DNA from: Candidatus Moranbacteria bacterium GW2011_GWE2_35_2-
GTDB taxonomy: Bacteria > Patescibacteriota > Minisyncoccia > Moranbacterales > UBA9337
DNA length: 64,000 nt
NCBI GenBank assembly: GCA_000990585.1
Contig: LBQD01000002.1
Location: forward strand, 184,016-248,015
Direction: 5' to 3'
The notes under the pieces were generated by a model. It saw only the letters and a program-made list of their open reading frames with translations, made no database searches and was not told the DNA's origin. The position numbers and the translations under genes are program-made. Of this stretch, positions 4,268 to 37,847 are shown in pieces (the stretch's first letter is position 1; each line of letters begins with the position of its first letter).

Positions 4268-6214
4268 ATGATACAATCTAATTGTTATATAGTTATTCGA
4301 ATAAAATTTTTTATGTCTCTTGATAACTTAAACAAAAAAATAAATAATCCCAATGAGTTGATTGATAATAGTGAAATTTACGGGGAAAAAAAATTACCAG
4401 TAGAGAACAAATTTATTATTGGTGATGGAAAAAAATGGAAGCGAACTAACGGTTGGCTGGATGAAGGAACATTGAAAATTATTAAAATTGCGATGATGGT
4501 TCTTGCCGGATTTTTTGTACTGGCGGCGATCGTTTATGGTGTTTTTCGGTACAGTCAAACTTCTTTTAGCGAGGAACGAGTGCTTGTTGAAATTGAGGGA
4601 CCGGCGGATATTAACAGTAGTGAAGTTGTAAAGTATAAAATAAAATATAAAAACAACAACCGAGCTGAACTTGAAAATGCGGAATTTGTGATTAGCTATC
4701 CTGAGAATTTCAATCCGGAAGGAAATTCTAATTTTCAAATTCAAGGGGAAAATAATAGTGTGGTTAAGGTGGGAAAAATAAAGTCTCGTGGTGAAGGTTA
4801 CGTGGAGATTAGTGGGCGTTTTTATGCGCCGATAAATTATACATTAATAATGAAAGCTTCATTGAAATACATGCCTTCAAATTTTAGCAGTCAATTTCAA
4901 TCTAGCACGCAAAAAGGTCTTAGCGTAAAAACTTCTCCGTTGGTAATTTCCATCAATGCTCCGATGGAGATTCTCAGTGAAAGTAAAATTAGTTATGTAA
5001 TCGGATACCAAAACACAAGTTCTATTTCTTTTGATGATTTGAAACTTGAAGTTGATTTTCCGAAAGGGTTTGAAATTCAAAATTCGGAAGTTTCTATTTT
5101 TAAAGAAAACAGCATTTGGAATGTTGGAAGGTTGGAGGCGGGGCAAAAAGGAGAAATCAAAATCGAGGGGATTATTCAAGGCGTAAGAGGTGATGTCAAA
5201 TCCATAAATGTCGCTATTGGACAGTTTAGGCAAGATAAGGAGTTGCTGGTGTTTGATAAAAGAGAAGCAATTTCTAAAATAGTGGTACTTCCTTTGTCCA
5301 TTTCACAAACAATAAATGAGCAAAAATCGCTTAATATCAATTCTGGGGAGAATTTGAATTATCGTTTGCATTATCGAAATGATGGAGATGTCGGATTGCG
5401 GGATTTGATTATAACGATGAAGATAGATTCTCCGGTTTTGGATTTTTCCAAGTTGAATTTGAGTGGCGGAGGTTCGTATGATTCGGAAAAAAAAGAAATT
5501 GCATGGAAAGCTTCTGATGTTTCTCAACTTGCCAAGCTTGATCCGGGTCAAGGAGGATCAGTAAGTTTTTCCATTCCAGTAAAAGACAAGATTGAAGTGA
5601 ACAGTAAGGAAGACAAAAATTTTTCAATTGAATCAATTGCTAAGATTGATAGTCCGGATGTGGCATATCCAGCGATAGGAGTAAATGAGAGTGCGAGCAG
5701 AGCGCTTGTAAAGGTCAATTCGAAAGTTATTTTAGAAACCGTCGGATATTATAAGGATGCGAATATTGCAACGTCCGGACCGATTCCTCCGGAAGTAGGC
5801 AAGGAAACGGAATATATTATTCATTGGTTAGTTACTAATATTTCCAATGATATTGATAATGTCTCGGTTTCCGCTTTTCTTCCGACGGGAGTGAAATGGA
5901 AAAACGAAATTTATTCAAAAACCGAGGATGTGAAATATAATGAAAGAACCAATGAGATTATTTGGAATCCGGGAAAAATTGAAAACGGAACCGGAATTTT
6001 GGGCAAAGTAAGAGATGTGAGTTTCAAAGTTTCGATAGTTCCACAAATAAATCAAGAAGGGAAAGCGGTTGTTCTTTTGGGAAAAACGACACTTAGGGCG
6101 AAAGACTTGTTTACTGGAAATGAAGTGTTAAAAGAAATTGCAGAAAAAAATACAGAACTTCGGGAAGATAGTAGTATTACATCTGCTGGTTATCAAGTGA
6201 AAAAAGGAGAGTAG
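4268..6214 (+). CDS. large N-terminally membrane-anchored surface protein, hypothetical (start uncertain; track start 4238 is TTG)
   Basis: single TM helix near residue 90 followed by ~550 aa beta-rich repeat-like domain; no catalytic motifs seen. Confidence 0.5.
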   Translation: MIQSNCYIVIRIKFFMSLDNLNKKINNPNELIDNSEIYGEKKLPVENKFIIGDGKKWKRTNGWLDEGTLKIIKIAMMVLAGFFVLAAIVYGVFRYSQTSFSEERVLVEIEGPADINSSEVVKYKIKYKNNNRAELENAEFVISYPENFNPEGNSNFQIQGENNSVVKVGKIKSRGEGYVEISGRFYAPINYTLIMKASLKYMPSNFSSQFQSSTQKGLSVKTSPLVISINAPMEILSESKISYVIGYQNTSSISFDDLKLEVDFPKGFEIQNSEVSIFKENSIWNVGRLEAGQKGEIKIEGIIQGVRGDVKSINVAIGQFRQDKELLVFDKREAISKIVVLPLSISQTINEQKSLNINSGENLNYRLHYRNDGDVGLRDLIITMKIDSPVLDFSKLNLSGGGSYDSEKKEIAWKASDVSQLAKLDPGQGGSVSFSIPVKDKIEVNSKEDKNFSIESIAKIDSPDVAYPAIGVNESASRALVKVNSKVILETVGYYKDANIATSGPIPPEVGKETEYIIHWLVTNISNDIDNVSVSAFLPTGVKWKNEIYSKTEDVKYNERTNEIIWNPGKIENGTGILGKVRDVSFKVSIVPQINQEGKAVVLLGKTTLRAKDLFTGNEVLKEIAEKNTELREDSSITSAGYQVKKGE

Positions 6215-6233
6215 TATCGTTTTATTTCAAAAT

Positions 6234-7397
6234 ATGGAAATTTTTTCCGAAAAAAGAGTAAGAGTGAAAAAAATAAAAACGAAAAGCGGAGAATTGCAAA
6301 CTCCGTTTTTTATGCCTGACGCTACACGAGGATTTATCAAATCTATGAGCGGAAAAGATTTGAAAGATGCAGGGGTTGGTCCGATGGTAGTCAATACATA
6401 TCATTTGTATTTGCAACCCGGTATGGAATTGATTAAGAAATCCGTCAGTCCTTGTCAAAATTTTGACGGACAAGGAAATATTCATAAATTTATGAATTGG
6501 GACAAGCCCTTGCTTTCCGATAGTGGAGGATATCAAGTTTTTTCTTTGATACACAAGAATCCGCAAATGGGAAAAATTACCGATGATGGCGTGGAATTTC
6601 GTTCGCCTTTGGATGGTTCAAAACACTATATTACTCCGGAAAAAGCGATTCAAATTCAGTTTGATTTGGGAGTGGATATGATGGTGTGCCTGGATGATCC
6701 GCCTCCAAACAGTCATACGAAAGAAAAAATTGAAGCGGCCGTTGATCGGACTTTGGCTTGGGCGAAAAGGTGTATGATAGAGTATAAAAAACAAATTAAA
6801 GAAAGGAAAATTGAAAAAGAAAATAAACCTTTGATTTTTTGCGTTATTCAAGGCGGTGAATATTTGGATTTGAGGAAAAAATGCGTTGAGGGATTGATTG
6901 AAATCGGGTTTTCCAAAGAAGGCGGACCGGCTATGCGATGGGATGGATATGGATTTGGTGCGCGGCATGTTGACAGCGAGGGCAATTTTTTGGAGAAAGT
7001 TTTGGAATATACTGCCAAGTTGATTCCGGAAGATTCTTTGCGTTTTGCTTTGGGAATCGGAACACCGGAGGATATTGTCCGTTCGGTGCAAATGGGATGG
7101 GATATGTTTGATTGCGTAATTCCGACGCGAGAGGCAAGACATGGAAAAATATTTTTATGGAAAGACGATAATTTGGAAGGGGAGTTTTATAAAACTGTGA
7201 ATATTACTAATTCGAAATTTAAGGATGATTTTAGCGCGATAGATGAAAATTGTGATTGTGAACTTTGTCTAAATTATTCACGGGCATATTTGCATCATAT
7301 TTTCAAAATGAAAGATCCTTTGGCGGCACGTATTGCTTCGATTCACAATTTGAAATTCTATACGAATTTGATGAAAAAAATCCGCGGGGAGATGTAG
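6234..7397 (+). CDS. tgt: queuine tRNA-ribosyltransferase
   Basis: GGYQVFSL, DCVIPTR, CDCELC...H zinc site and YLHHIFKMKD motif. Confidence 0.9.
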   Translation: MEIFSEKRVRVKKIKTKSGELQTPFFMPDATRGFIKSMSGKDLKDAGVGPMVVNTYHLYLQPGMELIKKSVSPCQNFDGQGNIHKFMNWDKPLLSDSGGYQVFSLIHKNPQMGKITDDGVEFRSPLDGSKHYITPEKAIQIQFDLGVDMMVCLDDPPPNSHTKEKIEAAVDRTLAWAKRCMIEYKKQIKERKIEKENKPLIFCVIQGGEYLDLRKKCVEGLIEIGFSKEGGPAMRWDGYGFGARHVDSEGNFLEKVLEYTAKLIPEDSLRFALGIGTPEDIVRSVQMGWDMFDCVIPTREARHGKIFLWKDDNLEGEFYKTVNITNSKFKDDFSAIDENCDCELCLNYSRAYLHHIFKMKDPLAARIASIHNLKFYTNLMKKIRGEM

Positions 7398-17239: not shown

Positions 17240-18589
17240 ATGAGCAAGACAACTAAGAAAAAAAGTAAAATAAAGAAGACTAAAAAAACAATGCCTAAAA
17301 AGTTGACAAGCAAAGTTGCAAAGAAGCAAAAGGCAAGGGTTGGGCAAAAAAAGCGCAATGTTAAGAAAATAAAGAAAATTGCAAATAAAAAGAAGTCTAC
17401 TGCAAAAAAGATGGTAAGGAAAACCGGCGGTTTGTTGCGTGCGAAAAAAACAACCGGTAAATCGGCAAAATTAAAACAGTCGCAATCAAAAAAAGAAAAT
17501 TTATTGGAAGAACTTGTATCTCGAGGGAAAATTAGAGGGTTTATAACCGAGGATGAAATTATTCATATAATTCCGGAAATAGAAAAAGATTTGGATGATC
17601 TGGAGAATTTATACGAAAAATTGGAAACCAACGGAATTAGAGTGGTGGGATCGGGCGAAATGATAAAGATGGAAGTGGACGCGACAGCAGAAAACTTCGA
17701 GAAAGAAAAAAATAGAAAAGAAAAAGAAAGACAGACGATAATTAACGAGGGAGAAGCTAATTCTTCCGATTCAGTACAAATGTATTTGAAAGAAATTGGA
17801 AGAGTTCCATTGCTTAAGACTGAGGATGAAATTCGTTTGGCGAAATTGAACGAAAAAGGTGATTTGGCCGCTAAAAAACAGCTTACAGAAGCTAATTTGC
17901 GGTTGGTGGTAAGTATTGCTAAAAAATATGTAGGGCGTTCGCATAATTTGGGCCTCTTGGATTTGATTCAGGAAGGAAATATTGGATTGTTTCGGGCGGT
18001 CGAAAAATTCGATTATCGTAAGGGGTATAAATTTTCCACTTATGCGACTTGGTGGATTCGTCAGGCGATTACGCGTGCGCTGGCCGATCAATCCAGAACA
18101 ATTCGTATTCCGGTGCATATGGTGGAGACTATCAATAAATATATTCAAATAACGCGCCGCCTTGTTCAGGAATTGGGACGCGAACCTTTGGCGGAAGAAA
18201 TTGCAGCAGAAATGGATATGGAAGTGGATAAAATCAGGCATATACAAAAAATTTCGCAAGAAACCGTTTCCTTGGAAACCTCAGTTGGAGATAGTGATGA
18301 TGAAAGTGTATTAGGTGATTTTATCGAGGATACAGAAACAATTATGCCTAATCAGGCGGCTTCAAGAAAATTACTTACCGGTCATGTTGTTGAAGTTCTT
18401 AGTGAGCTTACTCCGCGTGAGCAAAAAATTCTCAAAATTCGTTTTGGATTGGAAGATGGAGTGACTCATACATTGGAAGAAGTCGGGCAGGAATTCGGAG
18501 TAACGCGAGAACGTATTCGTCAAATCGAAGCCAAGGCTTTGGAGAAAATTCGTGATCATTCCGGAGTAGGTAAGTTGAGAGATTATTAG
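17240..18589 (+). CDS. rpoD: RNA polymerase sigma-70 factor RpoD with lysine-rich N-terminal extension
   Basis: [40 protein letters not shown] region 2, region 4 HTH at C-terminus. Confidence 0.9.
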
Positions 18590-18600
18590 AATTTTTTTAA

Positions 18601-18652
18601 AATAGATAAATACAAAAAAGACACAATGTGTCTTTTTTGTATTTATCTATTT
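18601..18652. terminator. near-perfect 51-bp palindrome, bidirectional terminator between rpoD and M23 peptidase
   Basis: AATAGATAAATACAAAAAAGACACA-A-TGTGTCTTTTTTGTATTTATCTATT, 25-bp arms. Confidence 0.6.
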
Positions 18653-27077: not shown

Positions 27078-27108
27078 TAAAAGGGGTAAGGCACCTTTTT
27101 TGTTAAAT
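27078..27108. repeat. ~30-nt upstream motif AAAAGGGGTaAGGcACCTTTTTTGTTAAATA (copy 1 of 4)
   Basis: near-identical copies at 33612, 34575 and 36867, each 40-90 nt upstream of a minus-strand gene start. Confidence 0.5.
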
Positions 27109-29099: not shown

Positions 29100-29269
29100 C
29101 CCTGTATTTTTTAAAATGCTCCCCCTGCAGGGTATGTTCCGCCACCTCAATATCGCTCAAATGGAGATGGAATTAAGCCTGTTTGCTTTTCAAGCCGTTT
29201 AATACTTAATAGAATTGTATAAAAATCAAAAGAGACTAAAAAATTTAGTCTTTCTGATTGTATGGGTAC

Positions 29270-29530
29270 TTATTTTATCCAGTCCCAATACTCTTTGTTA
29301 AGCCATCCATCCTTGTTTGTCGTAACCTGAATAACCAATAGGCTATCATTTTGGTCGATTTCGCTCCTTAATATAGCGGATATTTCAGACGTAGACTTAG
29401 TTGTTTTAAACAACCAAACAGATTCGAGTGGTTTGATATAATCTGTAGAAATTCGGTTTTTCAAAGATTCATACAACTTTGCATAATTTTTTCCGGGTGC
29501 CTTGAGATCATAACTTACTAGTACAATCAT
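29270..29530 (-). CDS. Cas2/VapD-fold small protein (orphan, putative nuclease/toxin)
   Basis: 86 aa; MIVLVSYDL...YAKLYESL...ESVWLF...DSLLVIQV matches Cas2/VapD beta-alpha pattern; no cas1 or CRISPR array in window. Confidence 0.4.
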   Translation of the reverse strand: MIVLVSYDLKAPGKNYAKLYESLKNRISTDYIKPLESVWLFKTTKSTSEISAILRSEIDQNDSLLVIQVTTNKDGWLNKEYWDWIK

Positions 29531-29700
29531 AATACTTACTATTAAATTGTCTTTTTGTGTTTCTTTTGCTAAAATGAATTAAGGAAAACATTTGTGAGAT
29601 GTAAAATAAAATACGAGTCGACCAATCTTTTACTTCAAAATATCCTCACAATATTTCAAAGTAAAAGCACTCTTATGTTTTACTAGCATTTGGAAACACG

Positions 29701-29727
29701 AAAAAGCTACCTCAAAGTAGCTTTTTT
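29701..29727. terminator. hairpin terminator at 3' end of ImmA gene
   Basis: AAAAAGCTAC-ctcaaa-GTAGCTTTTTT, 7-bp perfect stem with flanking A/T runs. Confidence 0.55.
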
Positions 29728-30383
29728 CTATTTCCAATAAAACCTAGATCTTCCAATCTAATTTGAAAAGCTTTTTTTGAGATACCGAATCGTTCTTTTA
29801 TTTTCGGATACACAAAATCAAGGTTTAATACTGATTTCAATCCTCCATTTTCAACCAATCCAAGTTGGGAAAAATAATTTACTAAATCAAATTTAGGTAC
29901 AAGCAAAGTGGAAGCGTATTTGTTTGCTTGCCATTCAAGTCTTTTTTCTCGTCCATCGGAAACAACTTTATTACTTTGAGATGGCAAAGGTTTTCCCTGC
30001 CAACCAACAACTTCACCATTTTCAAGACGCATCATTGAAAGGTGCAAAGAGAGGTGCCCCGCTTCGTGTGCCACGGTAAAATTTATTCTTTCAGGCGAAC
30101 AATTTGGATTAACATATATGATTTTGTTTTCAGGATCCAGATATCCCCAAATTTCATCATCTGATGTATCGGGCACAATTTCGTGAAAGACAATTTGAAA
30201 GCCCCACATTATTTCAATATAATTATCAATATCAAGTTTTTCAGAAGGAGCTTTATTAAATTTTTTTTGATAAATTTCTTTATATTTCCTAATATCCTGC
30301 ATAACCTGAAATTCAATCTCATCTTTCGTGAGTCGATATGTATCCACAAAGGGTATCCAATTTTTATGCAGTTTAATCTTCAT
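29712..30383 (-). CDS. ImmA/IrrE family metallopeptidase (COG2856)
   Basis: VAHEAGHLSLH HExxH motif in 223 aa protein; start overlaps XRE gene end by 11 bp. Confidence 0.75.
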   Translation of the reverse strand: MKIKLHKNWIPFVDTYRLTKDEIEFQVMQDIRKYKEIYQKKFNKAPSEKLDIDNYIEIMWGFQIVFHEIVPDTSDDEIWGYLDPENKIIYVNPNCSPERINFTVAHEAGHLSLHLSMMRLENGEVVGWQGKPLPSQSNKVVSDGREKRLEWQANKYASTLLVPKFDLVNYFSQLGLVENGGLKSVLNLDFVYPKIKERFGISKKAFQIRLEDLGFIGNRKKLL

Positions 30384-30708
30384 TTCCGCTAATTTTATTA
30401 TTTTTTATTTTTCGAAAAAGCTCCCCCATCATTTTTTCTTTATCTTTCATTTCTGGCCATTCTTTTTTTATTTCGACCGCAAGATAGCTAGTTATCAAGT
30501 CTTCAAACTCTTCTTCAGTTAAACCATACTTGGCTTTTATCTCATAAAGAAATTTTTTTGAAGGCGTTGCGAGTCCTGCTTCTATCTTACTTAAATAAGT
30601 AAAAAAATTACTATTTGGTTTGATTTTATCGCCTACAGTTCGCAAGCTTTCGCCAGGGAAGTACTTTTCCCTCAGACTCTTTAATTTGTCGCTAAAATTT
30701 ACCTCCAT
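30373..30708 (-). CDS. XRE-family helix-turn-helix transcriptional regulator
   Basis: SLREKYFPGESLRTVGDKI...YLSKIEAGLATPS HTH_3 pattern; ATG at 30708 (track start further upstream). Confidence 0.65.
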   Translation of the reverse strand: MEVNFSDKLKSLREKYFPGESLRTVGDKIKPNSNFFTYLSKIEAGLATPSKKFLYEIKAKYGLTEEEFEDLITSYLAVEIKKEWPEMKDKEKMMGELFRKIKNNKISGNED

Positions 30709-30743
30709 AGAGATTAGATTAAAAATTGTTATCCCTGTTGAAT

Positions 30744-30772
30744 ATAATATCAACAGTTGAAAAATTTGTCAA
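30744..30772 (-). promoter_or_regulatory. putative promoter and operator of XRE-ImmA operon
   Basis: minus strand TTGACA -17- TATTAT; spacer/-10 contains palindrome TTCAACTGTTGA and half-site TCAACAGG (autoregulation-type operator). Confidence 0.45.
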
Positions 30773-30805
30773 CACTCTTGTTCTTTATAATAAAAATGGC
30801 TTTAG

Positions 30806-31276
30806 TTAGCCATTTTTCATTGAGTCAGTTATTTTTTTGAGCCCTATGGCTTTATTTTTCTTTATTCCGTGTTCCCAAATTCTGATTACTTTCCAGCCAT
30901 TTCTCCTTAAGTATGCCGTTGTTTTACGGTCTCTTGTTCGATTATTATTTATTTTATCCCGCCAAAAATCATTTTTCAAAGTATTTTTCCACCTTGGAAA
31001 TTGCCAACCGTGCCAGAAATCACTATCAATAAACACGCAAATTTTTTTAGATTTAAAAACGATGTCAGGATTACCCTTGATGCTTCTTTGATGCGTCAAG
31101 AATCGGTATTTTGTTTCTTTTTTTAATAATTTTATAAACTCAATTTCAAGCTTAGTTTCTTTGGAGCGTATTTTCGACATTAACGCCGATCGCTTCTCTT
31201 CAGAAAGTTTATCCTTCAAATTTTTTCGCTGGAAATTTCTTCCAAGATAATTTCTTATTTTACGCTTTTTTACCAT
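30806..31276 (-). CDS. vsr: very short patch repair endonuclease Vsr
   Basis: TKLEIEF...GNPDIVFKSKKICVFIDSDFWHG Vsr catalytic core. Confidence 0.8.
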   Translation of the reverse strand: MVKKRKIRNYLGRNFQRKNLKDKLSEEKRSALMSKIRSKETKLEIEFIKLLKKETKYRFLTHQRSIKGNPDIVFKSKKICVFIDSDFWHGWQFPRWKNTLKNDFWRDKINNNRTRDRKTTAYLRRNGWKVIRIWEHGIKKNKAIGLKKITDSMKNG

Positions 31277-32303
31277 ATTTTAAGCCTGCTTCAAATATTT
31301 CAACCGCATCTTTTCCAGCTGTTTTTCGTAACATACCTTTCCAATGAGCTAGCTTATCGCTTGGAATTTTGGATATTCTCCAATAGTAAGAAATCCTTTC
31401 TTCATCTATTTCGTTTATGACGGATGCGATATTCGATGCGTTTGAATAAAGGTTAAAATAAATTTTAGGAACCAGTTTTTCTTTTCCTTTCAATTGAATA
31501 TTTTGTTGTCCTCCAGCCGTGAATTTATCTCGTAAGCTAGATGAAACAGTGTTATAAGCGGTTATCAAGTACGCAGCCACTCGCTCGAATTTTGTTTGAG
31601 TTCGTCCAAAAATTTCGGGAAATAATATCATTGATTCGATAAAAAATTTCTCTCGCTCCTTTCTTTCTAAAGTATCGTAGGACTTAATGATAGGTGCGAC
31701 GGTTCCTTCCTCGGACATTTGGTCAATCCACCATAATTCTTCACCGTCTTTCAATTGACTCCTGTAGTAATCCTTAACTTTAGCTATTAGGTTCGATTGT
31801 GAGCGAAACAACTCATAATCAATTTTCATTTTATCGAAAATAGATTTACCAATCTCTAACTCCATATTTATTTTGTACCTAGGCGAATGAGTCACGCCAA
31901 TATCGTAAAGGCACTCTTCATAAAGGCGAAACCTTATGTCCGTATCGCCGCCGAGCTTTCCAAAGAAAAGAAAGATTCTTTTTACGTCATCTATTCTTGT
32001 TGTTTCAAGGACGCTATTTCCAGTCGAAACCCATTTATTTCCAGTTGTGACTTTGACTTCCACTCCAAAATATTTTTTTGCGATAATATCGGGAAAAGCG
32101 TGCGCGCCCGTTTGTTTTACTGTATTTTCAAATTCAGTCCCAACTGACGATTCTTTCATTTTTTCAAAAACAAAAGTTTCAAACTCATCACCGCTCATAC
32201 CGCTATTTCTGCCTGAAAGAATATTTAATGAGTTTTCTCTTGTTTTTTCCAAAAGGGCAACAAAGTTTTCCTCCTGTATCCCGTTTTTATTGATATAAAT
32301 CAT
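31260..32303 (-). CDS. type II restriction endonuclease (PD-(D/E)xK) partner of Dcm
   Basis: FPDIIAKKYFGVEVKV = PD...EVK motif; gene between C5-MTase and vsr, overlapping both by a few codons. Confidence 0.5.
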   Translation of the reverse strand: MIYINKNGIQEENFVALLEKTRENSLNILSGRNSGMSGDEFETFVFEKMKESSVGTEFENTVKQTGAHAFPDIIAKKYFGVEVKVTTGNKWVSTGNSVLETTRIDDVKRIFLFFGKLGGDTDIRFRLYEECLYDIGVTHSPRYKINMELEIGKSIFDKMKIDYELFRSQSNLIAKVKDYYRSQLKDGEELWWIDQMSEEGTVAPIIKSYDTLERKEREKFFIESMILFPEIFGRTQTKFERVAAYLITAYNTVSSSLRDKFTAGGQQNIQLKGKEKLVPKIYFNLYSNASNIASVINEIDEERISYYWRISKIPSDKLAHWKGMLRKTAGKDAVEIFEAGLKYGKKA

Positions 32304-32310
32304 TGCTTTA

Positions 32311-33345
32311 TTACTTTAAATTTTTATCAAGAAATTTTTGAATCGCAGTCGCTATATGCCAAGCCATAACTGGGGGAACCGCATTGCCGACTTGCTTATA
32401 TGCGGAAGATGTTGAAGGGAAGAAAATGAAGTCGTCCGGAAATGATTGGATTCTGGCTGCTTCTCTAGCCGACAACCTTCTTTTCCCATTGTAATGATAT
32501 TCAATATTTCCGTGATGCTCAGTCCGCATTGTTGGTCCTGGTTTCAATGCGGATACAATATTGTTACCTTGCCCATTATTTTTTTTCGCCTTTGACCAAA
32601 AGTGGTTATCAAATCCCCCTTCTTCTAATTTCTCTAAATCACCAATAGCTTTTTTCAAAGGAATCCAATTTTCTTTACTAAATAATTCTTTCGGATAGTC
32701 TTCATTTTCAAATTTAGGAAGTTTTCCTTTTATTGTTCCAACAATTATGACACGCTCCCTAGTTTGCGGAACACCATAATTTGCAGCGTGCAATAATTTG
32801 AAGTTAACGTTATATCCCAATGTCGCAAAGTCTTTTACGATTGTATCAATAGCTTCTCCCTTGTTCATTGTGAGAAGTCCTTTGACGTTTTCAGCGACAA
32901 ATAAAACAGGCTTTGTGCGCTTGATTACTTCCATCATACTTTGATAAAGAATACCTCTTTTGCTTTCAAAGCCCTTTCTTTTTCCAGCGTGACTGAAATC
33001 CTGACAAGGAAATCCTCCTAAAACTATATCTACCTTTTGCGGCAGTTGTTTATCAAAAAGTTTTTTTGTTCCCTTTTCACTAAGAATATCTCGAATGTCA
33101 CCACAAACAATATCGTGTCCAAAATATTTTCTGTAAGTTTCACAGCTAGGAGAATCTATATCATTCGACCATTCCATTTCAAAATTCCTTTTTGCGTACT
33201 TCTTTCCTAAATAATCAAATCCGCCTCTAAAACCAAGATCGAGCCCTCCACACCCCGCAAACAATGAAGCTATTTTATATTTCTTCTTTTGTTCCTTTTT
33301 TGTATTCACAGTTTTGCTTATCGCCATATTATTGATTATTTTCAT
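32311..33345 (-). CDS. dcm: DNA (cytosine-5)-methyltransferase
   Basis: motif I LFAGCGGLDLGF, motif IV GGFPCQDFS, motif VI ENVKGL, C-terminal TRD. Confidence 0.9.
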   Translation of the reverse strand: MKIINNMAISKTVNTKKEQKKKYKIASLFAGCGGLDLGFRGGFDYLGKKYAKRNFEMEWSNDIDSPSCETYRKYFGHDIVCGDIRDILSEKGTKKLFDKQLPQKVDIVLGGFPCQDFSHAGKRKGFESKRGILYQSMMEVIKRTKPVLFVAENVKGLLTMNKGEAIDTIVKDFATLGYNVNFKLLHAANYGVPQTRERVIIVGTIKGKLPKFENEDYPKELFSKENWIPLKKAIGDLEKLEEGGFDNHFWSKAKKNNGQGNNIVSALKPGPTMRTEHHGNIEYHYNGKRRLSAREAARIQSFPDDFIFFPSTSSAYKQVGNAVPPVMAWHIATAIQKFLDKNLK

Positions 33346-33550
33346 TATGTTTTAAGAATTTTGCTATTTCTTTTTTGGAATACCTCATTAATTTTTTCTC
33401 CCCAATTCTTATAGCAACCAATATTCCTTTTGTGTCCCATTGTCTCAAGGTGTTTGGATGACATTTTAATAAACCGCAAGCCTCCTTTAGTGTGAGCAAC
33501 TCCGGGATGTCTTTATCGTTTTTTTGATCTTTGGTCATTGATTTTTTCAT
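33329..33550 (-). CDS. small HTH DNA-binding protein (MerR/excisionase-type HTH_17), possible controller of the R-M operon
   Basis: LLTLKEACGLLKCHPNTLRQWDTKGIL..IRIG; ATG at 33550 preceded by promoter; overlaps dcm start by 17 bp. Confidence 0.5.
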   Translation of the reverse strand: MKKSMTKDQKNDKDIPELLTLKEACGLLKCHPNTLRQWDTKGILVAIRIGEKKLMRYSKKEIAKFLKHNENNQ

Positions 33551-33563
33551 AACATTTGATAAC

Positions 33564-33593
33564 ATTATAATACATAAATGACCTTGGCTGCAA
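33564..33593 (-). promoter_or_regulatory. putative promoter of HTH-dcm-REase-vsr operon
   Basis: minus strand TTGCAG -18- TATAAT immediately upstream of ATG 33550. Confidence 0.4.
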
Positions 33594-33611
33594 ATGAGCG
33601 TTTTAAGGCAA

Positions 33612-33638
33612 TTGGGGTCAGGTACCTTTTTTGTTTTA
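33612..33638. repeat. ~30-nt upstream motif copy 2 (TTGGGGTCAGGTACCTTTTTTGTTTTA)
   Basis: see 27078..27108. Confidence 0.5.
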
Positions 33639-33688
33639 GTGCACAGCAAGGACGAGCCTAGACTAATCTTACAAACGAACTCCGCAAA

Positions 33689-34495
33689 TCATTTGCTGCT
33701 AAAATTTGTCAGAATAACGACTTCTTTCTCATGGATATGTCCATCTTTACTGTGTCTTTTGATAAAAAACTTCCTAGCACTTTCTTTGATTTCAGCCGAC
33801 ATATCATGCAGATGCCGCATGCCTATCCACTCCAAGACCATATTGCCGTTTTTATTAAGGATATTGCCTTTTGTCAAAACACCGGAAAATATCGTATCAA
33901 ATTTTTTGACTTTGATCCTATGCGCGCTAAGCCCGTTCAGTAACGAATCAACTTCATTCCTTGACGACGCATATTGATCGTCGGTTATTTTTTTAAGCCC
34001 GCCCAAAAAAGAATTTGCGTCATTCACCACGAAAACTGCGACTCCATCTTTTTTAAGCATTTTTCTTATTTTATCCAGATATGAGTTATTTCTAAAGGTA
34101 TAGATACTATGGATAAGAAAAATGATATCGTATTTGCTCTGGGTGGAAAATTTTTCGAAAGTACTCTTTTTTGTGGCAATGGGATACTTTTTCTTGGCCG
34201 ATTCCCTAATGCAGTTTTTTATAAATTCTTCTGAAGGCTCCACCAGATCAGCTTCGGCAATTATTTCTTTTTGTTTAAATAAATCAAGAAAATGCCTAAG
34301 TCGTTTGCCATCACCGCCACCGACATCCAATATCTTTAGTTCTTTTTTATTTCTAATTTTAGGATAGACAATATCAAAAACACTAAGAATCAATGAATCT
34401 TTTTTGCCATAAAGTATGTTTTTGAATTCGTTGTATTTACGGGCTCCTTCCGAGGAATTCAAATAATCCAAGTACTGTTTCTTTACATCTTTCAT
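33689..34495 (-). CDS. class I SAM-dependent methyltransferase
   Basis: ILDVGGGDGKRL motif I, acidic motif II DLVEP; ATG at 34495 (track start is TTG). Confidence 0.65.
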   Translation of the reverse strand: MKDVKKQYLDYLNSSEGARKYNEFKNILYGKKDSLILSVFDIVYPKIRNKKELKILDVGGGDGKRLRHFLDLFKQKEIIAEADLVEPSEEFIKNCIRESAKKKYPIATKKSTFEKFSTQSKYDIIFLIHSIYTFRNNSYLDKIRKMLKKDGVAVFVVNDANSFLGGLKKITDDQYASSRNEVDSLLNGLSAHRIKVKKFDTIFSGVLTKGNILNKNGNMVLEWIGMRHLHDMSAEIKESARKFFIKRHSKDGHIHEKEVVILTNFSSK

Positions 34496-34574
34496 AAACA
34501 AAGTCTAATACTTTATTGTGCCCTTGTCTAATGTTGGAGCCTGTTTTATAGCAAAAAAGAGCCTTCATTTGAAT

Positions 34575-34605
34575 AAAAGGGGTCAGATATATTTTTTGTT
34601 AAATA
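34575..34605. repeat. ~30-nt upstream motif copy 3 (AAAAGGGGTCAGATATATTTTTTGTTAAATA)
   Basis: see 27078..27108. Confidence 0.5.
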
Positions 34606-34757
34606 AATCATCTTCCGATTAGAATAAGGGAACTGCTTAAAAATTGCACTGTTGCTTTTTTTTATTTCATGCCTTCTGGAAATCCGGCTTAAGGTAATCG
34701 ATAACAGTCCTTAATTAGGCTAAACAAAAAAAGCCATTTGCTGGCTCTTTTGAGATT

Positions 34758-34867
34758 TGCTCCCGTTAGTTGATGTGTTCAGAAGACTTGAATTAAGGAA
34801 AATGGAGGAATCTTTGGAGATATTAAAAATAAGCGTGCCACAATTTTCTATGTAGAGCAGGCTCTAT
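34758..34867. repeat. 110-bp repeat, copy A (GCTCCCGTTAGTTGATG...TAGAGCAGGCTCTAT)
   Basis: ~80% identical direct repeat of 35714..35822; ends in hairpin TAGAGC-agg-GCTCTA. Confidence 0.7.
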
Positions 34868-34890
34868 GATTTTTTTTATTAAAATATTTT

Positions 34891-34930
34891 TAATAAAAAA
34901 GACGGTTATTGACTTGTTAGTCTCACCGTC
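34891..34930. terminator. hairpin downstream of membrane-protein gene
   Basis: AAGACGGT-(18 nt)-ACCGTCTT followed by T-rich run on minus strand. Confidence 0.45.
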
Positions 34931-34959
34931 TTTCAATTTCTTAAATCAGGAAGCTTGGA

Positions 34960-35550
34960 CTACCTGAAAAACTCAATTCGCACCATAAGCCCAATAATGG
35001 CACTTACCAGAATTACAGCCCTTGAGGCGTAAAGCAGTGCGAACCAGTCTTTCTCTTTAATTGGATTATAGAGGGCAGTCAGGTTGGAAATCAAAACGAT
35101 TACCCATACCGAGAAAGACTCGGTATTTTCGGTTGCCTTCCACAACCAAACTATAGTAGGAAGATAACCAATAACCAGAATAAAGTTTATTGCGATATTC
35201 GCCGCATTCGCTCTCTTGCTGATTCTCCAATAAATTAAAACTGCGACAACCGACGCAATGCACAGGATTTCAAAAGGGCTGAAAGCATAGCGAGTGTCTT
35301 TTCCGAAAAACAAAAGGAATAGCAGTATTGACCACGTCGCAAACACATCTGTTGTGTTTGCAATATTGGTAATGACATCCTTTTTGGAATCAGCACGCAT
35401 ATACGTCCATATTCCTACGCCTGTAGCCAGTGAAAACAAAAGCCAGGTAGCAAGAACAGGATGGATTTCTCCCAATTTTATTAAATAGCAATATCTGATA
35501 GCGACCACCGCCATCAGAAATGAGACAACGACAGCCGTTATTCTTTTCAT
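34960..35550 (-). CDS. polytopic membrane protein, hypothetical
   Basis: ~6 TM helices; ATG 35550 with GGAGGG RBS (track start TTG 35643); flanked by the two 110-bp repeats. Confidence 0.4.
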   Translation of the reverse strand: MKRITAVVVSFLMAVVAIRYCYLIKLGEIHPVLATWLLFSLATGVGIWTYMRADSKKDVITNIANTTDVFATWSILLFLLFFGKDTRYAFSPFEILCIASVVAVLIYWRISKRANAANIAINFILVIGYLPTIVWLWKATENTESFSVWVIVLISNLTALYNPIKEKDWFALLYASRAVILVSAIIGLMVRIEFFR

Positions 35551-35713
35551 TTTATCCCTCCTATAGGTAGAAATTTTTCTTATAATCCAAAGGATTTTGT
35601 TGAAAAAAGAACTGACGCATAAGTTTATAACAAAATAAGGCAAAAGTCAAGCATAAGTTCTAATCCTGCCCGAGGTATAAAAAATAACCCTTTAGATAAG
35701 GGTTATTTTAGGT

Positions 35714-35822
35714 GCTCCCGTTAGTTGATGTATTCAGAATGCTTAACTTAAGGAAAATGGAAGAATCTTTGGAAACACTTAAATAAGTTTATCTCAATAT
35801 ACAATGTAGTGCCTGCTCTATA
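35714..35822. repeat. 110-bp repeat, copy B
   Basis: direct repeat of 34758..34867; terminal hairpin variant TAGTGC-ctg-CTCTA. Confidence 0.7.
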
Positions 35823-35834
35823 TTGCTGGATAAA

Positions 35835-36779
35835 TCAAATCACTTGTCTCAAAACTCTCATCCAGTTGTCATAGAATATCTTCTTTACAACTTTTTTATC
35901 TAATTTTTGAAGTAGAAAATCTTCTATTCCATTAAGAATCAATACGTCCTTATGTCCCTCCAAGAAAGGATACTTTTCTAAGGGATAAATATCTGAACTG
36001 ATTGCCACATAATCATCACCCCATTTATTTATAATATATTCTATGTGTTTATAAAACTCATCAAAAGTTCCATTTTGCCCAGTCTCTGCAGAAAATGGAA
36101 ATAATGAAATTACACCTCTCCTGTCAACTACCAATTGAATCTCTTCATCAGTTAAATTATGTATCGTATTGCAAACTGAACGAACATTACTGTGCGTTGA
36201 AACGATCATACCTTTAAATATGTCGCTTACATCTTTCACGGACTTTTCACTTAAATGAGCAATATCTACAATTAAGGGCTTGCTATTCATTTTTTCCAAA
36301 ACATCAATACCTTTTTGACTAACACCTGTATCATTTTTTGAATTTCTTCCGCTGGCATAGTCATTGCTTTCTTCCCAGGTTAATCCAAAAATTCTTACGC
36401 CCAAATCATAAAAATGGTCAAAGTCTTCTGGGTTGCGAAAACACTGAATACCCTCAATAGTATAAATGCAAACTATATCATTTGATTTTTCATTTATCTC
36501 TCTAAAACTAGTGCTTGTTTTAATTTCCGAACTGATAGAGAAGAGCTCTTCATACCATTGGTGAAAATTATTAACTCCATCATAAAAACTAGTCTTGAGA
36601 AAACTTTCATCAAAATACAGCGAAACTCCTAAAACTTTAATCCCGGCTTTTTGAAGTTTACTCAGAGTTACTGGTAAATCTTTCTGGGAATAAAAATCAC
36701 TCTGTCTATATTTAAACAGCCGATACATATCAGCTATATCTATATGAGAATCAATTTTATGTATTCTTTTATTACCCAT
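35835..36779 (-). CDS. membrane dipeptidase (peptidase family M19)
   Basis: KIDSHIDIAD (HxD), LGVRIFGLTWE, VDIAHLSEK, STHSNVRSVCN...HNLTDEEI, YDNWMRV motifs; ATG at 36779 (track start TTG 36851). Confidence 0.65.
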   Translation of the reverse strand: MGNKRIHKIDSHIDIADMYRLFKYRQSDFYSQKDLPVTLSKLQKAGIKVLGVSLYFDESFLKTSFYDGVNNFHQWYEELFSISSEIKTSTSFREINEKSNDIVCIYTIEGIQCFRNPEDFDHFYDLGVRIFGLTWEESNDYASGRNSKNDTGVSQKGIDVLEKMNSKPLIVDIAHLSEKSVKDVSDIFKGMIVSTHSNVRSVCNTIHNLTDEEIQLVVDRRGVISLFPFSAETGQNGTFDEFYKHIEYIINKWGDDYVAISSDIYPLEKYPFLEGHKDVLILNGIEDFLLQKLDKKVVKKIFYDNWMRVLRQVI

Positions 36780-36866
36780 ATAAGTAATTATGCTTGAATC
36801 AATGTTGTTTGCAATTTTATAAATAAAATAATCAGTGGTCCAGAAGTCCAATCTAAATAAAAGAAT

Positions 36867-36889
36867 AAAAGGGGTCAGGTACCTTTTCC
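36867..36889. repeat. ~30-nt upstream motif copy 4 (AAAAGGGGTCAGGTACCTTTTCC)
   Basis: see 27078..27108. Confidence 0.5.
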
Positions 36890-37183
36890 TATTTCTTCCA
36901 ATCCTTGATTAAAATCCCGCCCCGGACTTTTTTTACTACGACTTTTTGTTTTTCTTTCCATCCCAAATCCCGAATCATTTCAATAGGGAGGGTGACAGCA
37001 AGACTTGTTTTTCCTACGCGCGTAATTTTTCTGGTGTTTTTGTCTTTGAGTTTCATCCTTCTTTTTATTTTAAGAATTAATTTTAATACTTACCAAAGTA
37101 AGTATTAAAATTATACATCCCTAAAACAGGAAAAGCAAAAAAATAAGCACTCTTTTAATTCAAAGAATTTCTGATCATTTGCT

Positions 37184-37474
37184 TCAAGCTGCTTTTTCCC
37201 TTGGTGGTTTTGAAGTATTTTCTTTAAAATAATGTCGCAGTTGTTTTTTGAGATATGTTCGACCGGAACCACTCTTGAGAAATTTTTCTCGTCCGACCGC
37301 ATCAGCTTTATTGAGATATGCTTCGTAATAAATTAATTTCCAATTTTTCTTCAAAGAAGTTGTTCTGCATCCATATCCTCTTTGATGATCATTAACTCTG
37401 GTTTTCAAATCATTAGTATATCCAATATACCAAGAATTATCATTTTGACACTCTAATAAATAGGCGTAATACAT
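37184..37474 (-). CDS. GIY-YIG nuclease superfamily protein (UPF0213-like)
   Basis: YYAYLLEC...WYIGYTNDLKTRVNDHQ...KLIYYEAY...REKFLK. Confidence 0.7.
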   Translation of the reverse strand: MYYAYLLECQNDNSWYIGYTNDLKTRVNDHQRGYGCRTTSLKKNWKLIYYEAYLNKADAVGREKFLKSGSGRTYLKKQLRHYFKENTSKPPREKAA

Positions 37475-37725
37475 GATTTTAAATTAGTGAATTATGTTTT
37501 AATTATACAGTAAAAAAAGACCTGTCGCGCCACGAAAAATGGCTTCGCCATCTCGTGGCCACGAAAAACTTACAAAAAAGGTGGAGTTATATAGTTTTGT
37601 AAAATATGGCGGCGCCACGAGATGAAAAACTTGTCACGCAAAATTCGCTTCGCTCATCGCGTGACTGCGGAAAACTTGCAAAAAAGGTTATTATATAGGC
37701 GATATTCCATATGGCGTGCTGCGAG

Positions 37726-37765
37726 ACGAAAAAAAGACTATCCCGTCAGGGTAGTCTTTTTTGAG
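37726..37765. terminator. hairpin terminator downstream of tRNA-Asn
   Basis: AAAAAAGACTAtCCC-gtca-GGGTAGTCTTTTTT. Confidence 0.6.
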
Positions 37766-37775
37766 TTTTTCGCAG

Positions 37776-37847
37776 CTCCGACGGTAGGATTCGAACCTAC
37801 GACCAAGTGATTAACAGTCACCTGCGCTACCACTGCGCCACGTCGGA
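37776..37847 (-). tRNA. tRNA-Asn (anticodon GTT)
   Basis: minus strand TCCGACG acceptor, GCGCAGTGGTAGCGC D-arm, anticodon loop CTGTTAA, GGTTCGAATCC T-arm. Confidence 0.85.

Follow-up and report, generated by a model that had tools for sequence, protein, structure and literature searches.

Type II restriction–modification (R-M) systems that combine a methylase producing 5-methylcytosine (C5) with an adjacent Vsr gene are represented by the HpaII, XorII and NaeI-type systems, and the dcm–vsr pair of Escherichia coli is their solitary analogue. Controller (C) proteins, the regulators of R-M systems, are of the XRE/HTH_3 type and bind palindromic C-boxes; near-leaderless mRNAs have been reported for some C genes. 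C.PvuII, C.AhdI and C.Csp231I are controllers of this kind, and RptR is analogous in function but differs in fold (PMC12255303). The locus discussed here lies in a stretch of 64,000 nucleotides (nt) of Candidatus Moranbacteria bacterium GW2011_GWE2_35_2- (GCA_000990585.1, contig LBQD01000002.1, positions 184,016–248,015 of the forward strand), called the window below. Between positions 33593 and 30806 of the window, on the minus strand, four consecutive genes encode a small HTH_17 protein, a C5 cytosine methyltransferase (MTase; Dcm), a restriction endonuclease (REase) of the PD-(D/E)XK type and a Vsr protein. They very probably constitute an intact and horizontally mobile Type II R-M cassette read from one promoter and lodged in a mosaic interval, not in a tRNA-integrated island.

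Domain scans covered the 19 open reading frames (ORFs) between 26707 and 39268; NCBIfam and PADLOC profiles were applied as well as Pfam. The Dcm product scores far above the family cutoffs (Pfam DNA_methylase PF00145, E = 3e-77, 260.5 bits for a cutoff of 22; TIGR00675, E = 4e-73, 247 bits for a cutoff of 100.65) and matches PADLOC MTase_II at 9e-96. Its translation contains GGFPCQ (motif IV) and AENV(KG) (motif VI), which bears out the C5-MTase with PCQ and ENV motifs proposed in a first-pass annotation of this DNA. The Vsr gene placed by that annotation after the REase gene is also real: its product is recognized by Pfam Vsr (1.6e-18) and TIGR00632 (111.8 bits for a cutoff of 97.85) and aligns to E. 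coli Vsr (PDB 1cw0) at 7e-13, with GNPD opposite GRPD, which holds the catalytic PD.

Between these two genes lies that of the REase, for which neither the Pfam and NCBIfam scans nor a PDB sequence search gave a match. It does match PADLOC REase_II (PDLC03508) at 6.5e-45 over profile positions 30–317 of 340, and it carries the motif FPD72...E82-V-K84, in which D72, E82 and K84 are invariant across 40 homologues. An AlphaFold2 model built on these 40 homologues (mean predicted local distance difference test score, pLDDT, 82.6) has its best Foldseek matches in the PDB with SwaI, HincII and EcoRV, followed by Hjc resolvases. The PD..EVK restriction endonuclease of the first-pass annotation thus stands, and the nuclease-fold homology that had been suggested as a check on it was found by profile as well as by fold comparison. 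EcoRV, HincII and SwaI are blunt cutters whose partner methylases are not C5 enzymes; the fold class of the model hints that this REase, too, may cut bluntly.

If the enzymes are active, as their sequences predict, the MTase would introduce 5-methylcytosine and protect the host's own sites, and the REase, with a fold nearest to those of the blunt cutters named above, would cut unmethylated incoming DNA. Where deamination of 5-methylcytosine leaves a T:G mismatch, Vsr would nick beside the T, so that the site would be restored rather than mutated. The HTH_17 protein would bind three phased direct repeats lying over the −10 hexamer and the transcription start, and would in this way autoregulate the operon.

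The composition of the cassette was compared with the neighbourhoods of REase homologues in 85 loci (44–82% identity). They belong to a family of more than 1000 members in which none bears a functional name, those that are named being called ‘hypothetical protein’. A Dcm homologue (61–89% identity) lies directly upstream of the REase gene in every one of these loci with room for it, and in most of them the gene directly downstream is a Vsr homologue. The Dcm and REase genes, 7 nt apart in the window and kept adjacent in the 85 loci, are hence neighbours in the manner of Type II R-M genes. Distant REase homologues (30–38% identity) encoded on plasmids of Klebsiella, Parabacteroides and Pelobacter all adjoin a cytosine methyltransferase; the Klebsiella homologue carries the annotation ‘restriction endonuclease’, and a Vsr gene is close to it. 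Because of the nuclease support for the REase, its linkage to Dcm and the Vsr matches, the MTase–REase–Vsr set is considered a true Type II R-M cassette to which deamination repair is coupled. The view that Vsr joined to a C5-MTase R-M system is a coherent deamination-repair arrangement agrees with the strict linkage of the three enzymes in about 85 loci.

Among the other genes found near the cassette in the window, those of a class-I S-adenosylmethionine-dependent methyltransferase (SAM-MTase), an M19 dipeptidase, a GIY-YIG protein, an XRE/ImmA pair and a Cas2-like protein accompany it in none of the 85 loci. Elsewhere the cassette is a unit of three to four genes in unrelated contexts, including unrelated housekeeping genes. 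What moves is the R-M cassette itself. On one Logan contig (L004:4452-6083), 2.7 kb separate an HTH_17–Dcm–REase–Vsr cassette from a large serine recombinase, and an SMC/AAA_23 ATPase gene comes after the cassette, a context that suggests carriage on an integrative element or in a defence island. An IMG/VR viral contig (L129, IMGVR_UViG_3300038805_000277) carries at 5019-6720 a cassette of the XRE type (C protein, Dcm, REase), in which the REase match spans residues 1–244 only and the gene may be truncated or frameshifted.

The four genes are closely packed. According to the first-pass annotation each gene overlaps the next by a few codons; this is true of REase and Vsr (17 nt), whereas Dcm and REase are separated by their 7-nt gap. 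Likewise, the reported overlap of the HTH_17 gene with the start of dcm exists (17 nt) only if translation begins at 33345, the two genes being 1 nt apart with the called start at 33327. The operon promoter proposed earlier, TTGCAG and TATAAT with an 18-nt spacer, can be read directly in the sequence, and a promoter scan calls the site in another register (TTTGCA-16-TATTAT). Such hexamers are weak evidence by themselves, since promoter-like hits are common in this AT-rich DNA (46 found, against 32 expected). Another locus (L003) has kept a block GGTCATT..TGTAT.ATAATGTTATCAAATGTTA in front of its orthologous HTH_17 gene, although the flanking DNA differs. Three 10-bp phased direct repeats form the putative operator and extend across the −10 hexamer, the likely start of transcription and the start codon of the HTH_17 gene. 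The same three-repeat arrangement, which makes up the conserved block from the −10 hexamer to the start codon, is found in L003, whose HTH_17 protein is 71% identical to that of the window. A second locus of the HTH_17 type (L077) has a different direct repeat, CATTGTAAT, in two copies, and one with an XRE-type controller (L096) has an inverted repeat in place of direct repeats. The HTH_17 start codon follows the −10 hexamer by only ~14 nt, so the mRNA would be near-leaderless.

The first gene product matches Pfam HTH_17 (9e-9), PADLOC mad1 (2e-7) and also MerR_1, but not HTH_3. Weaker matches are to the NCBIfam excisionase family TIGR01764, to HTH_BldC (E = 9e-4) and to the PDB entries 6amk/6ama (E = 0.16–0.28), deposited as ‘Putative DNA-binding protein’ and presumably BldC. 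BldC is a developmental regulator that binds direct repeats head-to-tail. Besides the window, L003, L077 and L004/L005 have an HTH_17 protein in the slot upstream of Dcm; in 10 loci the slot is filled by a classical HTH_3 protein of 68–83 amino acids, which in size and fold corresponds to R-M controllers, and in five by a RadC-like protein, no comparable upstream ORF being seen in the others. This exchange of HTH_17 protein, XRE controller, RadC or nothing at one position makes the HTH_17 protein a probable controller analogue. With about even probability, it has replaced the C protein as a non-orthologous substitute and would autoregulate the operon at the phased direct repeats; no publication on HTH_17 proteins as controllers of Type II R-M systems was found in the literature. 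In part of the family a RadC-like JAB protein (PF04002 + PF20582) is fused to the methyltransferase or directly precedes it (P0147, P0167, P0191, P0204 and others; loci L056, L058, L079, L082 and L088). Membership in a MADS system was considered and rejected: there are partial hits only (HTH_17 to mad1, as above; SAM-MTase to mad2, 4e-13, positions 287–409 of 492), and the SAM-MTase is kept in the closest relative without the HTH_17 gene, so the pair is not co-inherited.

The surroundings of the cassette were examined by comparison with close relatives, sought by Ddl with one genome per species. The closest of them (L008) has a Ddl that is 91% identical in amino acid sequence and flanks that are 94–99% identical in nucleotide sequence. 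As the first-pass annotation stated, all genes from 29270 to 37474, thirteen in number, lie on the minus strand; this unbroken run, seen in the ORF listing and the profile scans, descends from tRNA-Asn and stops short of the plus-strand Ddl gene. The SAM-MTase, M19 dipeptidase and GIY-YIG protein that it listed were all recovered by profile scans, and the cassette is indeed accessory, being absent from L008. The arrangement is not an assembly artefact, since the gene order is identical in 24 independent assemblies. The proposed single 8-kb island abutting tRNA-Asn did not survive the comparison. L008 shares with the window the Ddl block, the SAM-MTase block (33614–34571, 96% nt identity), the GIY-YIG block (37161–37629, 99%) and the side with the tRNA, VTT and rubrerythrin genes; where one block present or missing next to the tRNA was to be looked for, two separate slots (A and B, Table 1) are replaced instead. 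Because L008 keeps the separating blocks in place, the interval between Ddl and tRNA-Asn is a mosaic with at least two independent slots, and 4 kb separate the R-M cassette from the tRNA gene. The absence of an integrase and of a tRNA-derived direct repeat was confirmed: no integrase or recombinase domain occurs in the 19 ORFs scanned, and no tRNA-derived repeat longer than 10 nt occurs in the window, the longest match, of 10 nt, lying elsewhere than at the distal border. The GC content of the region (0.32–0.37) is that of the remainder of the window.

Table 1. Features of the interval between Ddl and tRNA-Asn and of its variable slots (positions in the window)
Feature	Position	Strand	Basis or remarks
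HTH_17 protein, 73 aa	33329-33550	-	Gene call; Pfam HTH_17
Dcm C5 cytosine methyltransferase	32311-33327/33345	-	Called start 33327 (338 aa)
REase, PD-(D/E)XK type, 347 aa	31260-32303	-	PADLOC REase_II
Vsr	30806-31276	-	Pfam Vsr, TIGR00632
Promoter-like site of R-M operon	33564-33593	-	TTGCAG (33593-33588), 18-nt spacer, TATAAT (33569-33564)
Three 10-bp phased direct repeats ATGTATTATA / ATGTTATCAA / ATGTTATGAA	33546-33575	-	Putative operator, read directly
Variable slot A	29123-33613		R-M cassette, XRE/ImmA, Cas2-like; different 2.1-kb segment in L008 (blastn breakpoints)
Variable slot B	34572-37160		AbrB/MazE-like, M19, membrane protein, D1 repeats; different, GC-rich 3.3-kb segment in L008
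XRE-like small protein, 111 aa	30373-30708	-	Gene call; weak Pfam HTH_3
ImmA/IrrE-type M78 metallopeptidase	29712-30383	-	Pfam Peptidase_M78
Promoter-like site before XRE/ImmA	30744-30772	-	TTGACA-17-TATTAT with upstream TG, 11/12 matches
Cas2-like small protein, 86 aa, stand-alone	29270-29530	-	Pfam Cas2 below cutoff
Class-I SAM-MTase	33689-34501	-	Profile scan; 95% aa identity to L008 copy in same place; outside R-M cassette
Membrane protein	34960-35550	-	Profile scans
M19 dipeptidase	35835-36779	-	Profile scans
AbrB/MazE-like	36889-37056	-	Profile scans
GIY-YIG domain protein, stand-alone	37184-37474	-	Profile scan; L008 96% aa, 99% nt identity
Repeat D1a, ~110 bp	34758-34870	-	Terminator-like hairpin follows; structure z = 0.4
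Repeat D1b, ~110 bp	35713-35825	-	Terminator-like hairpin follows on minus strand
AAAAGGGGTCAGGTACCTTTT copies	33610-33630 (+), 34575-34595, 36867-36887, 27079-27099		L008 homology starts inside 33610-33630 copy
tRNA-Asn(GUU), intron-less in window	37775-37847	-	Strong terminator hairpin 37730-37762 after tRNA

The cargo that replaces the two slots in L008 (11146-13250 and 14209-17548) has no homologue in the window, and several of its genes have a GC content of 0.48–0.54 for flanks of ~0.37. It includes phosphoribosyltransferase-like, glyoxalase-like and orotidine monophosphate (OMP)-decarboxylase-like genes and two further genes, the family labels being a reading of the translations. A further locus (L012) also has phosphoribosyltransferase-like and OMP-decarboxylase-like genes next to Ddl. 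The GC-rich cargo may represent foreign pyrimidine-salvage genes acquired by bacteria of the candidate phyla radiation (CPR).

Intergenic elements recur within the interval. The two direct repeats of about 110 bp noticed at first pass were recovered as D1a and D1b, which align over ~115 columns with a 71-nt core that is 86% identical. The recurring motif was also recovered: a 21-nt version, AAAAGGGGTCAGGTACCTTTT, has four copies in 64 kb for 0.01 expected, one of them (27079) outside the region. Two of the four breakpoints between the window and L008 (33613/33614 and 34571/34572) fall inside or beside a copy of the motif, and one of the junctions in L008 bears a D1-like element. The motif occurs in this genome and in L008; 18 more distant relatives were also examined, and none has it. 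Repeats and motif show no significant structure relative to shuffled sequence (z 0.1–0.5), and an Rfam search of the window returned two tRNAs only, the repeats matching no RNA family. On the plus strand (34758-34830 / 35713-35785), the D1 repeats encode, from TTG or GTG starts, similar peptides, MLPLVDVFRRLELRKMEESLEILK... (32 amino acids) and MLPLVDVFRMLNLRKMEESLETLK (24 amino acids), and several differences between the two copies, read by hand, are synonymous. The repeats may thus contain small antisense ORFs or what is left of a gene.

A number of observations weigh against the interpretation of the locus as an intact and regulated R-M cassette. The Foldseek matches of the REase model are weak (E = 2e-3 or worse, template modelling (TM) scores 0.25–0.45, the best match having 0.32/0.45) and cover the N-terminal ~210 residues only, and the enzyme may be inactive even with its motifs intact. 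The E. coli Vsr segment GCFWHHHHCYLFK aligns to SDFWHGWQFPRWK, and the cysteines of 1cw0, which we take to be the zinc ligands of its structural Cys/His zinc site, are unmatched at ‘FWHGWQFPRWK’. Neither an alignment of the target-recognition region nor palindrome avoidance pointed to a recognition sequence. An alternative supposition is that the middle gene is not a working REase and that the locus is a solitary Dcm–Vsr pair, of which E. coli provides an example, with a degenerate or different nuclease-like gene; the lack of a Pfam or NCBIfam model and the name ‘hypothetical protein’ throughout the databases accord with it. Yet the gene is full length by comparison with more than 1000 homologues (44–82% identity), its catalytic triad is invariant, its match to PADLOC REase_II is strong, and its strict linkage to Dcm across phyla fits selection on a toxic enzyme that needs its cognate methylase, all of which leaves this supposition only a very slender chance. 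As for the regulator, the controller role is deduced only from its position, from its replacement by C proteins in relatives and from the conserved repeats. HTH_17 proteins include excisionases too, and with the MTase ahead of the REase in one operon the delayed-REase logic of C proteins is not directly transferable. Alternatively, the HTH_17 protein could be no transcription controller but an excisionase or a recombination-directionality factor left over from the mobile element by which the cassette arrived, in line with its weak matches to the excisionase family and with the serine recombinase 2.7 kb from the cassette in L004. This is unlikely in view of its tight coupling to the Dcm start directly behind the operon promoter, the conserved phased repeats over the −10 hexamer and transcription start, the absence of a recombinase near the HTH_17 gene in the window or in L003, and the classical XRE C-type protein found at the identical position in other members of the family.

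The interpretation of the island has a weakness of its own, in that a single close relative, the metagenome-assembled L008, defines the breakpoints. The older idea, by which all of 29270–37847 is one accessory island inserted next to tRNA-Asn with the R-M operon as a cargo module, draws on the common orientation of the genes, on a stretch that stops at the tRNA and on the absence of parts of it from the closest relative. It is scarcely credible when the GIY-YIG and SAM-MTase blocks are in place in L008 and the differences amount to two replacements, when integrase and tRNA-derived repeat are lacking and the GC content is like that of the flanks, and when the cassette occurs elsewhere without the other genes. 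Conversely, the slots could be cassettes exchanged site-specifically at the AAAAGGGGTCAGGTACCTTTT motif and D1 repeats, as in an integron-like array in a CPR bacterium: three of the four motif copies lie within the 8-kb region, two of the four breakpoints are at or next to one of them, with a D1-like element at one of the L008 junctions, and all genes are co-directional. This proposal is very unlikely, since the region has no integrase or recombinase, the repeats and motif have none of the significant structure of attC sites (z about 0), no motif stands at the remaining two breakpoints and the motif is absent from the 18 distant relatives. Moreover, slot A contains several genes and promoters rather than one promoterless gene, and the motifs stand just after stop codons and may be conserved 3′ ends or terminators. 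Structured attC-like sites and IntI, the hallmarks by which an integron differs from this interval, were not found here. A looser version, in which the interval between Ddl and tRNA-Asn is a lineage-specific exchange hotspot where units are swapped at the CTGACCCC-containing motif or D1 by an unrecognised mechanism, is improbable to the same degree. On the simplest reading, the motif and D1 are conserved 3′-end or terminator-proximal elements, with recombination at or near them.

With respect to specificity, Dcm aligns to M.HaeIII and M.HhaI only outside the target-recognition region, and no enzyme names are among the source names of 240 homologues. No palindrome is more depleted in the window than GGCC (30 occurrences for 109 expected), which was considered as the recognition site. 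Its observed-to-expected ratio of 0.28 there compares with 0.44 for L008 and 0.73 for the other Patescibacteria loci (L009–L026); because GGCC is thus also depleted in genomes without the cassette, the depletion is uninformative about this enzyme and was discarded as a clue. GATC is depleted in the window, in L008 and in the Patescibacteria loci as well. Depletion of GGCC and GATC with or without the cassette suggests long-term exposure to restriction of these two specificities in the communities.

Besides the cassette, slot A contains two separate neighbours, the XRE/ImmA pair and the Cas2-like gene. The XRE and ImmA genes overlap by 11 nt and have a strong promoter-like site of their own, so they are a separate transcription unit. 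The XRE-like protein is a weak match to Pfam HTH_3 (E = 0.011), and ImmA matches Pfam Peptidase_M78 (PF06114, 7e-12) and PADLOC capP (4e-17). ImmR/ImmA and CapH/CapP are repressor–protease pairs (bioRxiv 10.1101/2022.04.27.489752), and the pair in the window resembles them in its M78 peptidase, in the overlapping XRE-like gene upstream, in the strong promoter-like site of its own and in its place beside a defence system. It differs from them in being downstream of the R-M operon and co-directional with it, rather than divergent upstream, in the weakness of its HTH match and in its absence from all 85 loci of this R-M family. The Cas2-like protein falls below the Pfam Cas2 cutoff (20.9 bits for 23.8). 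A word-based search found three relatives and an exhaustive search more than 1100 cluster representatives (E ≤ 1e-3), mostly of 85–120 amino acids among the 150 best; eight of 42 family members weakly match Cas2. No CRISPR array was found in the window, and the resemblance to Cas2 is one of fold and sequence pattern only.

The tRNA-Asn gene itself differs between the two genomes. In L008 (18094-18656, minus strand) tRNA-Asn(GUU) is interrupted between the second and third anticodon bases by a 563-nt insert, at the equivalent of 37813/37814 in the window, that matches the Rfam group I intron RF00028 (59.6 bits for a gathering cutoff of 50, E = 3e-14). U is the last base of the 5′ exon and G that of the insert, and an ORF of 127 amino acids within the insert (18244-18627) looks like an HNH endonuclease by its Cys/His pattern. 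ARAGORN found no tRNA in L008, and no publication describing group I introns in tRNA genes of Patescibacteria was found in the literature. The intron-less copy of the window is a potential homing site. The spacer between tRNA-Asn and the GIY-YIG gene carries 34-nt hairpin repeats (37549-37582 / 37655-37688) that are 106 nt apart and 82% identical; Tandem Repeats Finder did not call repeats of ~106-nt spacing near the tRNA, and only the 34-nt pair is solid. A blastn overlap suggests one extra repeat unit in L008 (17904-18097). With the tRNA terminator included, the spacer segment 37626–37775 has a well-folding sequence (z −3.9).

The current understanding of R-M systems is left unchanged by this locus, whose interest lies elsewhere. 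A family of more than 1000 sequences, named only ‘hypothetical’ in the sources consulted and common in Patescibacteria, receives a functional label, that of a Type II REase associated with a C5 methylase and Vsr. The interchangeable first-gene regulators of this family (HTH_17, XRE C protein, RadC or none) amount to a small natural experiment, and the ultra-small CPR genomes are seen to retain hotspots where defence and metabolic cargo turns over between close relatives.

Compared with known systems, the cassette shares with the HpaII, XorII and NaeI-type systems the tight linkage and co-transcription of C5-MTase, PD-(D/E)XK REase and Vsr and the deamination-repair rationale; it differs from them in a REase that no Pfam or NCBIfam model describes and in a Vsr in which the zinc-site cysteines of the E. 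coli enzyme are unmatched in the alignment. The REase has the PD...(D/E)XK motif in common with EcoRV, HincII and SwaI, its best structural matches over the N-terminal ~210 residues, but is only 8–12% identical to them in sequence and has an additional C-terminal helical domain of ~140 amino acids. With C proteins, the HTH_17 protein shares small size, DNA binding as predicted, the first place in the operon and repeats over the promoter, whereas its fold is HTH_17 and not HTH_3, its putative operator consists of direct repeats and not of a palindrome, and it precedes MTase, REase and Vsr where the C proteins of the comparison precede the REase alone. It resembles BldC/Xis-type proteins in its length of ~70 amino acids and its MerR-like HTH, and the direct-repeat binding of BldC would fit the phased repeats, although the matches are weak and BldC is not an R-M component. 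The system is, in sum, an uncharacterised example of a well-known type, with the modest twist of an HTH_17 protein in place of a C protein.

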